A stretch of DNA of 64,000 nucleotides from Nitrospirales bacterium (GTDB taxonomy: Bacteria > Nitrospirota > Nitrospiria > Nitrospirales > UBA8639), in assembly GCA_963555755.3 (NCBI GenBank), contig OY820905.2:3456001-3520000 (forward strand), read 5' to 3'. Position 1 is the stretch's first letter, and every line of letters begins with the position of its first letter. Positions 2,872 to 4,277 of this stretch are shown here, in pieces. The notes below the pieces were generated by a model. The model saw nothing but the letters and a program-made list of their open reading frames with translations. It did not search any database and was not told the DNA's origin. The position numbers and the translations under genes were made by a program.

Positions 2872-3050
2872 GGACCTGAGAGAAAATAACTTGGACGTCT
2901 CGCATCCCATCTTTGGGCCACCTTTGAACGGGCCTCAATCGAAACACCTTCAACATAGCTGTGCTAGGCCTCGGGTTTTCCTCAATCGTTCCGTCCAAAT
3001 CCGACCCAAATCTTGGCCCGATATTGTCCAAGTTATTTTCTCTCAGGTCC
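2872..3050. mobile_element. MITE family A, copy 1 (179 bp)
   Basis: Terminal inverted repeat GGACCTGAGAGAAAATAACTTGGAC; TTA duplicated on both sides; second copy at 21725-21903. Confidence 0.85.
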
Positions 3051-3186
3051 TTAGCGTTTTTTTTGGTATTGATCAAAAGAACTCGCCAGTATATGATTTG
3101 AATGGCTAGCATTTAACCGCAATACACCGACTCCTTTTTTCACAGTTGTGTTCCTCGGTAGCTCAGTTGGTAGAGCGGTCGGCTGT

Positions 3187-3743
3187 AAGGAGACGTGGCC
3201 TGGTGGCAGAAAGGAGAAAATACGCTGATCGTAGAGAATATCTGATCAATGCCGTCTGAAAACGTCGCAAGGAAATTCGCCAAAAAGTAATACTCCATTT
3301 TGGCGGACGTTGTCAGCGGTGTGATTATGATCGGTGTATAGAAACATTGGAGTGCCATCATCTTGAGTCCTCAGAGAAAGATTTTGGAATTTCTAGCAAA
3401 GGGTATACTCGAAGCTGGAACCAAATCCTGAAGGAACTTGAAAAATGTGTGCTCCTGTGTGCCAATTGCCATCGAGAGGTTCACGCCGGATTGCAGCTTC
3501 CACAGGAAACTGTGGTTGAAAAATCGGGTGAATTCAGGGAAGCCTTCCCCGGGTTCGTGACGAACTCGGAATGGGAACCCTGAGCGAAGCCTGCCGAAGG
3601 GTCTCGTGTAGGCAGGAACGTGCAGAGACTAGAGGCTGAGGAACCCAACCCAATAAGGCCTCACAAGCGCCCGACACCCTCCCCTGATTGTTCAGGCGGG
3701 TGATGAGATAGTCCGAGCCCGGTAGAAATGCTGGGGGTACTCG
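3187..3743 (+). ncRNA. Group I self-splicing intron (557 nt, IA-like with P7.1 extension)
   Basis: Follows exon U and ends in G. P (AATTCAGGGAA 3531), Q (AACCCTGAGC ~3576), R (GCAGAGACTAG 3622) and S (GAGATAGTCC 3704); P3 TCGGGTG/CGCCCGA; P7 GACTA/TAGTC; guide TTGCAGCT 3491-3498 pairs with GGCTGT|AA with G.U at the splice site. Confidence 0.9.
3203..3583 (+). pseudogene. Intron-encoded HNH endonuclease with an in-frame TGA at codon 19
   Basis: GTG start after AAGGAG; MAERRKYADRREYLINAV*KRRKEIR...GGRCQRCDY...LECHH...CVLLCANCHREVH (CxxC..HH..CxNCH); TGA at 3257-3259. Confidence 0.8.
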
Positions 3744-3788
3744 TAACCGACTGGTCGCAAGTTCGAGTCTTGCCCGAGGAGCCAATTT

Positions 3789-3828
3789 AAAAAGGCCATG
3801 AGATAATTTCTCATGGCCTTTTATTTTT
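3789..3828. terminator. Bidirectional terminator between the tRNA and fdx
   Basis: AAAAAGGCCATGAGA-TAATT-TCTCATGGCCTTTT. Confidence 0.8.
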
Positions 3829-3860
3829 GTAGGGAGAAACTGTCTGCGGACCAAAGGATT

Positions 3861-4277
3861 TCAGTGACCTTCTTTTACCAAATTTTTATTCCACTCTGGA
3901 ATTTCTACGACAAGGTTTTTGGACCCATCCGGAATGCACTGGCAAGCCAATCGAGATTGCAGCGTGAGGGCCGGAGCTTCGTCCAATTGGTCTAACTCGT
4001 CATCTGTGGCTTCGTTACAGGTCTCCAGTCCTTCCTTTACAATAACGTGACAGGTTGAACAAGCGCATACCCCTCCGCACGCATGTTCCACATCCAGACC
4101 TGCTGCTCCCATGGCAATATCCAGAATACTCCCAGGTTGGCCGGTTGGGCCATAGGGAATTTTACTTGGATCAACCTCGACTACCACATTTTCTCCTGGT
4201 GTTTTGATCGTGACGGTGAATGGTTGTGTCGCGGCTTTTGCTTCAATTTGCTCTATATAAGGATTGCTCCCACCCAT
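3861..4277 (-). CDS. fdx: 2Fe-2S ferredoxin (ISC-type Fdx)
   Basis: HACGGVCACSTCHV...SRLACQ; start MGGSNP at 4277 after a GGAG RBS. Confidence 0.88.
   Translation of the reverse strand: MGGSNPYIEQIEAKAATQPFTVTIKTPGENVVVEVDPSKIPYGPTGQPGSILDIAMGAAGLDVEHACGGVCACSTCHVIVKEGLETCNEATDDELDQLDEAPALTLQSRLACQCIPDGSKNLVVEIPEWNKNLVKEGH

Follow-up and report, generated by a model that had tools for sequence, protein, structure and literature searches.

Introduction

Intron-split bacterial tRNA genes were distributed over 21 classes by K. P. Williams (2020; bioRxiv 10.1101/2020.01.27.920355), who noted that introns above about 400 bp may hold genes. In that scheme the classical bacterial tRNA introns, Leu.3Ug, Arg.5Ug, fMet.2Ug and Ile2.5Ug, are all marked IC3. 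More recently, Nakagawa, Amikura, Omae and Suzuki (2025; bioRxiv 10.1101/2025.07.03.662931, listed in PMC12641178) reported group I introns at a "novel insertion site" in tRNA genes of Patescibacteria. Between them, these two studies likely cover the site between positions 35 and 36 of tRNA-Asn, which is the subject of this report.

The Patescibacteria introns are said to lie at position 35/36 of tRNA-Asn and tRNA-Asp, to belong to subgroup IA and to splice in vitro; they are reportedly rare elsewhere and mostly without an endonuclease. In the literature that we searched, most subscription papers and the preprint supplements being outside our reach, no paper was found on Asn introns of Nitrospirota or on the HNH family described below.

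We analysed a stretch of 64,000 nucleotides, hereafter the window, from a Nitrospirales bacterium (assembly GCA_963555755.3, contig OY820905.2, positions 3,456,001 to 3,520,000, forward strand; coordinates below are those of the window). The original prediction, made from the letters alone, was that a tRNA-Asn(GUU) gene is split here within its anticodon by a group I intron. The element is real, yet common in its lineage and in many bacterial phyla; it is a good new instance of a kind already known, and no rarity. Our reading, to which we give a probability of about 85%, is that a self-splicing intron occupies the sole tRNA-Asn gene of the host, from which it cannot be imprecisely lost, and that in this strain it is now past the homing stage. 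Splicing, cutting and homing are steps that we infer.

Results

An intron in the only tRNA-Asn gene of the host

The 5' exon (3152..3186, + strand) covers tRNA positions 1-35, ends in ...GGCUGU with U35 as the -1 U, and agrees with the intron-less tRNA-Asn of sister genomes. The 3' exon (3744..3784, +) covers positions 36-76, from UAACCG to an encoded CCA. When the exons were joined by script, excision of 3187-3743 gave, as predicted, a 76-nt tRNA-Asn(gtt) with a complete 5-bp anticodon stem. The insert is indeed preceded by a U and its last base is a G, and among 72 registers tried this was the only one that also gave a sense anticodon; alternative splice registers (Thr, Tyr, Leu, Stop) were ruled out by the U/G rule and by the guide.

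The host, suspected to be Nitrospira-like, does belong to the Nitrospirales. Its genome (4.62 Mb in 2 contigs, 99.4% complete) was checked for a second tRNA-Asn: ARAGORN found 46 uninterrupted tRNAs, none of them Asn but including all other tRNA types, and neither exon was duplicated according to BLAST. With its one tRNA-Asn gene interrupted, the cell likely cannot do without splicing, and the roughly 27,000 Asn codons of the long ORFs likely rest on this gene. The suggestion of an essential single-copy tRNA relying on splicing thus holds for the copy number and is likely for the dependence. The further claim that standard tRNA callers would miss the gene is true of ARAGORN with default settings, but the intron option of the same program does recover it. 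The other genes that this option calls as split (SeC, Glu, Arg, Leu) lack an RF00028 match and look spurious. Two tRNA-Ser(GCU), and a tRNA-Arg(UCG) alongside Arg(ACG) and Arg(CCG), were also present in the host tRNA list.

The gene is flanked by a 2-oxoacid:ferredoxin oxidoreductase operon and a ferredoxin/isc operon. Upstream, a sigma-70-like promoter candidate (TTGATC-17-TATGAT, 3069..3097, +, 9/12 matches) is at chance level, with 1 found for 0.9 expected, and is suggested by its position alone; downstream lies a terminator-like 14-bp hairpin with a 5' A-tract and a 3' T-tract (3790..3822, +). Upstream of the tRNA we noted an inverted pair, each copy some 45-50 nt long (window 2891-2935 / 3003-3053: AAAATAACTTGGAC... 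/ ...GTCCAAGTTATTTT); region 3000-3055 draws very many contigs of other organisms in every run compared, like a widespread intergenic repeat. Between porD and the tRNA is a gene for an 87-aa protein (2569-2832) that has no Pfam or NCBIfam family and is kept in 61/61 family loci examined, at 54-85% identity.

Anatomy and class of the ribozyme

The intron (3187..3743, +, 557 nt) begins with AAGGAG and ends with ...ACUCG, the omega-G being at 3743. The group I covariance model RF00028 matched 3430-3735 with 69.7 bits (gathering threshold 50; E 2e-16), its sole match in the host genome. The internal guide sequence, i.e. the 3' strand of P1, is found where it had been placed (3491..3498, +): GCAG at 3493-3496 pairs with the exon CUGU, putting G3493 in wobble with U3186, and UU at 3491-3492 pairs with the first intron AA. 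Pair probabilities in the guide were 0.96-1.0 (0.99 for U3186.G3493), and 0.46 and 0.27 for the two outer pairs. The P2 hairpin, CCACAG-GAAA-CUGUGG with its GAAA loop (3500..3515, +), was recovered as well. The catalytic core, delimited from aligned relatives and pair counts, spans 3524..3714 on the + strand and contains P3 (3524-30/3668-74), P4 (3534-39/3578-83), P5 and P6, P6a (3590-95/3611-16), P7 (3625, 3627-31/3709-14), P7.1 (3632-37/3657-62) and P8 (3675-79/3698-3702); it is followed by P9.0 (3715-17/3740-42, +) and the P9 hairpin (3718-3735, +).

These helices were examined in 115 intron cores, 114 of them distinct, after exclusion of one copy with a bad junction, of one without a located guide and of duplicates; the pairing model was drawn from the window's intron, itself among the aligned sequences and hence somewhat favoured. 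Over the 114 distinct cores, pairing reached 100% for P2 (with a compensatory change in 6/6 pairs), 98% for P3, 100% for P4, 99% for P6, 96% for P6a, 100% for P7, 98% for P8, 98% for P9 and 81% for P9.0. Most of these helices had compensatory changes, among them P2, P3, P4, P6a, P8 and P9, and controls slid by 1-2 columns paired at 0-65% (18-65% for these six helices; 88% for P6 at +2). P7, including the G-binding pair, is nearly invariant, and G3627-C3713 is invariant. P7.1 was paired at 81%, with a compensatory change in 5/5 pairs and slid controls at 42-56%. Pairing of the P7.1 loop with the 3' end in a pseudoknot was not supported, only 25-44% of the aligned cores being paired there. The fold of the precursor had a z of -5.7 against 20 shuffles, and the U/omega-G junction is identical in 44/44 Nitrospirota copies. 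The insert is confirmed as a group I intron at position 35/36 of tRNA-Asn.

An extra helix P7.1 between P7 and P3' is a mark of subgroup IA (in part after PMC3428280), and in IC3 introns, the classical tRNA introns, nothing is inserted between P7 and P3'. The window's intron is IA-like, because P7.1 stands between P7 and P3', P2 is present and P5abc is missing, as is P2.1; the 36-nt insertion carrying P7.1 does not fit IC3. PMC3428280 gives P7.1 plus P7.2 linked by GUA as the mark of IA2; the aligned cores have a single covarying helix between P7 and P3', without P7.2.

Known group I chemistry, applied to this anatomy, suggests how the tRNA would be made. Pairing of the guide GCAG with the exon CUGU would place U35 in a G.U wobble; a free guanosine bound in P7 would cut after U35, omega-G 3743 would then take its place, and U35 would be joined to U36, restoring the GUU anticodon. 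In four of the six RNA runs listed, the contigs had no 3186-to-3744 joint, but such contigs are incapable of showing a mature tRNA or of excluding DNA; one RNA contig was unspliced from 3286 through the 3' exon. In DNA-type runs, 3186-to-3744 joints had a short side of at most 36 nt, and were read as intron-less relatives.

A broken HNH gene in loop L1

The first reading had overlooked both a gene in L1 and its nonsense codon. An HNH endonuclease frame of 126 codons (3203..3583, +), with a GTG start and a TGA at codon 19 (3257-3259), occupies the 5' ~300 nt of the intron, and its last 30 codons cross the guide, P2, P3, P4 and P5, ending with a stop at 3581-3583 in the 3' strand of P4. A putative Shine-Dalgarno-like AGGAG lies 10 nt upstream of the GTG (3188..3192, +). 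The frame has the motifs CxxC, HH and CANCHREVH, and among 56 open relatives the CxxC, HH and CxNCHxExH residues are invariant. It matched a PHROG HNH family (E 2e-25), while its Pfam HNH score was under the cut-off (13.7 versus 21.4 bits); searching solved structures by sequence gave weak HNH matches (McrA, E 0.006). The structure model of an intact relative (pLDDT 89) has strands at 49-53 and 82-86 and a helix at 87-95, and a fold search with this model had HNH nucleases among its top matches, with a best Z of only 4.8.

A closing stem of L1 is predicted between 3194..3209 (+), which spans the start codon, and 3466..3485 (+), which holds the C-H-R-E-V-H-A codons. Such a stem, of 16 bp in the window, is predicted in 63/71 introns of HNH length; the 8 others are 7 Patescibacteria-titled loci and one untitled locus grouping with them. 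Deleted intron forms retain just the closing-stem hairpin. The stem would loop out the 300-nt nuclease gene and bring the guide to the splice site; it would also bury the HNH start codon.

Relative to seven relatives, dN/dS was 0.07-0.11 (two further relatives were saturated), which suggests purifying selection on the HNH gene until recently and, likely, a recent break. From its location, dN/dS and patchy spread, the frame is likely a homing endonuclease gene, whose intact product likely cut intron-less tRNA-Asn genes and thereby drove copying of the intron into them.

The TGA is genuine and no sequencing error. It was found in contigs of five runs (X1, X3, X10, X11 and X14), of which two, one possibly the source sample, are identical to the window over 3025-3900; the T is also present in the three others, two of which show 4-7 further differences. 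Two RNA runs (X17 and X18) have CGA at codon 19, and one of these contigs has a one-base insertion downstream. The X10 contig, where an identical 5' half of the intron follows a foreign upstream flank, was rejected as a case of transfer, since the 39-nt shared exon can falsely join graphs. In an Acidobacteriota copy (L056), a stop at the same HNH codon is followed by another three codons on, an independent break. Reading of TGA as a sense codon, through a code 25 donor or read-through, was also rejected: TGA is the normal stop of the host, ending 632 of the 1848 long ORFs, and at this position relatives encode R, Q, K or others.

Could the protein nevertheless still work, by read-through of the TGA or by restart at TTG 3347, or could it serve as a splicing helper rather than as a homing nuclease? 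The remaining HNH frame is intact and conserved, an ORF from TTG 3347 does exist, and the TGA allele is common to strains in several runs. Yet read-through would have to overcome a common stop codon, restart at 3347 would drop the N-terminal helix and the first CxxC, and relatives are broken differently, by a frameshift in G127 and by a His-to-Arg change in G022. We sorted 44 Nitrospirota introns by the state of their HNH, an automatic and approximate sort: 6 were intact, 1 had a nonsense codon, 2 were frameshifted or deleted, 1 was motif-changed, 1 partial, and 33 had a remnant or none. That the core is kept in these 33 ORF-less introns implies that splicing needs no protein encoded in cis, against the helper role. 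We consider a functional protein very unlikely. In our preferred reading, the homing stage is likely ending in this strain, with the nuclease gene decaying and the ribozyme kept because the tRNA is essential.

Distribution among genomes

The intron was expected to be unusual outside Patescibacteria, which is contradicted by its presence in 25/115 genomes of the host family (100/115 had a tRNA-Asn match) and in 38/401 Nitrospirota; within this Nitrospirota sample, the sister family had it in 13/90. All 44 of the 44 Nitrospirota copies sit at Asn 35/36. An ORF-less intron variant was found in two sediment runs.

In genus g4, 18/38 genomes have the intron. Fifteen of these 18 introns (L115-L132) carry an L1 remnant of 30-33 nt and three one of 97 nt, and they are interleaved with empty alleles on the host tree, a pattern that suggests either many precise losses or spread without a nuclease of their own. 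In another genome (L258, G069:C1:266049-268845), two sets of tRNA-Asn exons, both uninterrupted, are separated by about 2.7 kb, which suggests that the gene was duplicated or that an island has integrated there.

A scan of species genomes returned 250 HNH relatives. Among the best 80 of the 250, ranked by likeness to the window's protein and hence no measure of prevalence, 76 lie in introns at tRNA-Asn 35/36, and the other 4 had no tRNA call and are near contig ends. Nine of these best 80 are Patescibacteria-titled loci, and the titles further include Nitrospirota, Acidobacteriota, Elusimicrobiota, Omnitrophota, Bipolaricaulota, Deltaproteobacteria, Actinomycetota, Bacillota, Bacteroidota, WOR-3 and others.

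Evolutionary history of the intron

The tRNA-Asn locus is orthologous in the host family, with porD and the small gene upstream in 61/61 genomes. A host tree was built from 534 columns of locus neighbours, covering each of the 25 genomes with the intron and 36 of the remaining 75. On this 61-genome tree, intron presence requires 16 changes, at least 13 of them forced by well-supported branches; with shuffled labels, the mean was 19.6 and 40/500 shuffles were as low as 16. Alleles of every kind, whether intact, broken, remnant, ORF-less or empty, are dispersed over the tree, in agreement with the Goddard-Burt cycle (PMC8393795). Most of the scattered genus g4 copies have no nuclease, and homing alone is insufficient as an explanation.

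The intron might instead be an adaptive regulator of tRNA-Asn supply, as is reportedly proposed for Patescibacteria in the preprint of Nakagawa and colleagues. The persistence of ORF-less introns with a conserved core in genus g4 would agree with a benefit to the host. However, close relatives are empty at the locus, including 3/3 same-genus genomes with an assembled tRNA-Asn; presence is scattered much as if labels were shuffled; and an essential host gene would conserve the core without any benefit. We consider such a role very improbable, and keep to an intron retained through its essential host gene.

In the intron tree, whose free search was suboptimal and which has long branches and possibly mislabelled bins, a single clade was not rejected for the host family or for Nitrospirales (AU p 0.97 and 0.86), but was rejected for all Nitrospirota (AU p 0.0025). 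The second result implies that transfers between lineages occurred; the first, that the scatter could reflect an old gain followed by many precise losses, with little new homing. So the intron has probably resided long in Nitrospirales, with frequent precise loss or re-invasion and some inter-lineage transfers.

A comparison with Patescibacteria introns had been called for, and it does not indicate a donor there. A recent and rare import from Patescibacteria could have been argued from the rejected Nitrospirota clade, and from the host tRNA, the site and the HNH family, all of which also occur in Patescibacteria. Nevertheless, the nearest cores are those of family members (90-93% identity), followed by Nitrospiraceae, Rokubacteria and Bipolaricaulota (up to 86-88%), whereas Patescibacteria cores are 53-64% identical, and Patescibacteria HNHs form a separate clade (SH-aLRT 97) without the L1 closing stem; such an import is hardly credible. 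Lastly, a dead insert or an artefact of assembly, with a working tRNA-Asn in unassembled DNA, can practically be dismissed: RNA contigs that cannot show a spliced joint had none, and the genome is in two contigs, but two runs gave identical contigs over 3025-3900, a genome this complete has every other tRNA type, and the core helices are all intact.

Phage relatives of the nuclease

We found 65 viral loci encoding HNH relatives, 52 of which have tRNA genes within 2 kb, and the closest viral relatives are free-standing genes in phage tRNA clusters. One of 20 viral loci scanned had a group I match: L140, a viral contig of 26.9 kb that terminates in a full HNH-bearing intron with a tRNA-Asn 3' exon. 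This end could be flanking host DNA or the attachment site of a prophage. We set aside the idea that phages carry the intron itself, this single match possibly being of host origin.

The other 64 viral loci formed 38 clusters at 65% identity, still related to each other; 28 have tRNAs and 17 have tRNA-Asn. In 12 of these 17, tRNA-Asn is a nearest tRNA neighbour, against 4.6 expected when labels were shuffled within loci (p 2e-4). A quick HNH tree of 78 columns had 3 changes between phage and intron labels, at a resolution that gives no direction of capture. The phage pattern is compatible with what PMC2988022 summarises as "collaborative homing".

Two viral contigs have an insert in a tRNA-Asn near an HNH relative. 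In L143 (2257-2379), a free-standing relative is immediately followed by a tRNA-Asn whose 35/36 site holds a hairpin-like insert of 48 nt (GGCUGU / AG...G / UAACC). This insert is far below the size of a group I core and could be an intron remnant, another type of intron or a target-protecting insert. In L151 (2506-2665, minus strand), a tRNA-Asn beside an HNH relative has an 84-nt structured insert in the anticodon loop, with no group I match.

Discussion

A practical consequence is that, annotated with default tools, about one host-family genome in four and one sampled Nitrospirota genome in ten will appear to have no tRNA-Asn. The tRNA-Asn 35/36 intron class is no speciality of Patescibacteria, and is often equipped for mobility. 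One family with intact-looking, broken, remnant, ORF-less and empty alleles offers a testable bacterial example of the homing cycle. What the present locus adds is this snapshot of the cycle, the closing stem and the tie to phages.

Tentatively, and at somewhat less than even odds, we propose a single HNH lineage specialised on the anticodon arm of tRNA-Asn. In phage tRNA clusters its genes would stand free beside tRNA-Asn; once captured into loop L1 of the Asn 35/36 intron, such a gene would have lent its start and active-site codons to a ribozyme stem, and the composite would still be homing across many bacterial phyla. If so, this would be a clear case of collaborative homing in a chromosomal tRNA gene, with the whole cycle visible in one Nitrospirales family, including a stop allele for which marine populations are still polymorphic. 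Were the phage link to hold, it would point to the likely source of the nuclease, and to a small enzyme (about 100 aa) whose predicted target lies in a very conserved gene.

Several known systems share parts of this organisation. T4 SegB and mycobacteriophage HNH enzymes are free-standing endonucleases of phage tRNA clusters (PMC2988022, PMC6409571), and the nearest viral relatives of our HNH reside in such clusters; SegB differs in being a GIY-YIG enzyme that cuts between tRNA genes, and the accessible text of these two papers states no tie of one HNH lineage to tRNA-Asn. Phage IA2 introns with an HNH gene, such as that of I-PfoP3I (PMC3428280), likewise have the gene in a group IA intron with a frame overlapping core helices; they are described in phage protein genes, with P7.1 and P7.2 and no P2, whereas the window's intron has P2, has its ORF in L1 and gives support for P7.1 alone. 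The classical tRNA introns and the Azoarcus pre-tRNA-Ile intron (PMC13168695) are of the same self-splicing type, in the anticodon loop of a chromosomal tRNA, and form P1 from the 5' exon and the guide; they occupy another tRNA or position, and the window's intron has in addition P7.1 and a 300-nt HNH loop in L1.

Closest are the two descriptions that likely cover the site itself. In the naming of Williams (10.1101/2020.01.27.920355), the window's intron is Asn.4Ug, a U(-1)/omega-G intron in the anticodon loop, and its insertion pattern is CUGU / ...G / UAA, restoring tRNA-Asn(GUU); the main text of that preprint never says "Asn", and describes no HNH family, homing cycle or phage link. With the Patescibacteria introns it shares the host tRNA, the site, the HNH family (in loci found in this analysis) and the IA-like anatomy. 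It differs from them by its Nitrospirales host, by a core only 53-64% identical, by an L1 closing stem that is absent there, and by being common rather than rare within Nitrospirota.
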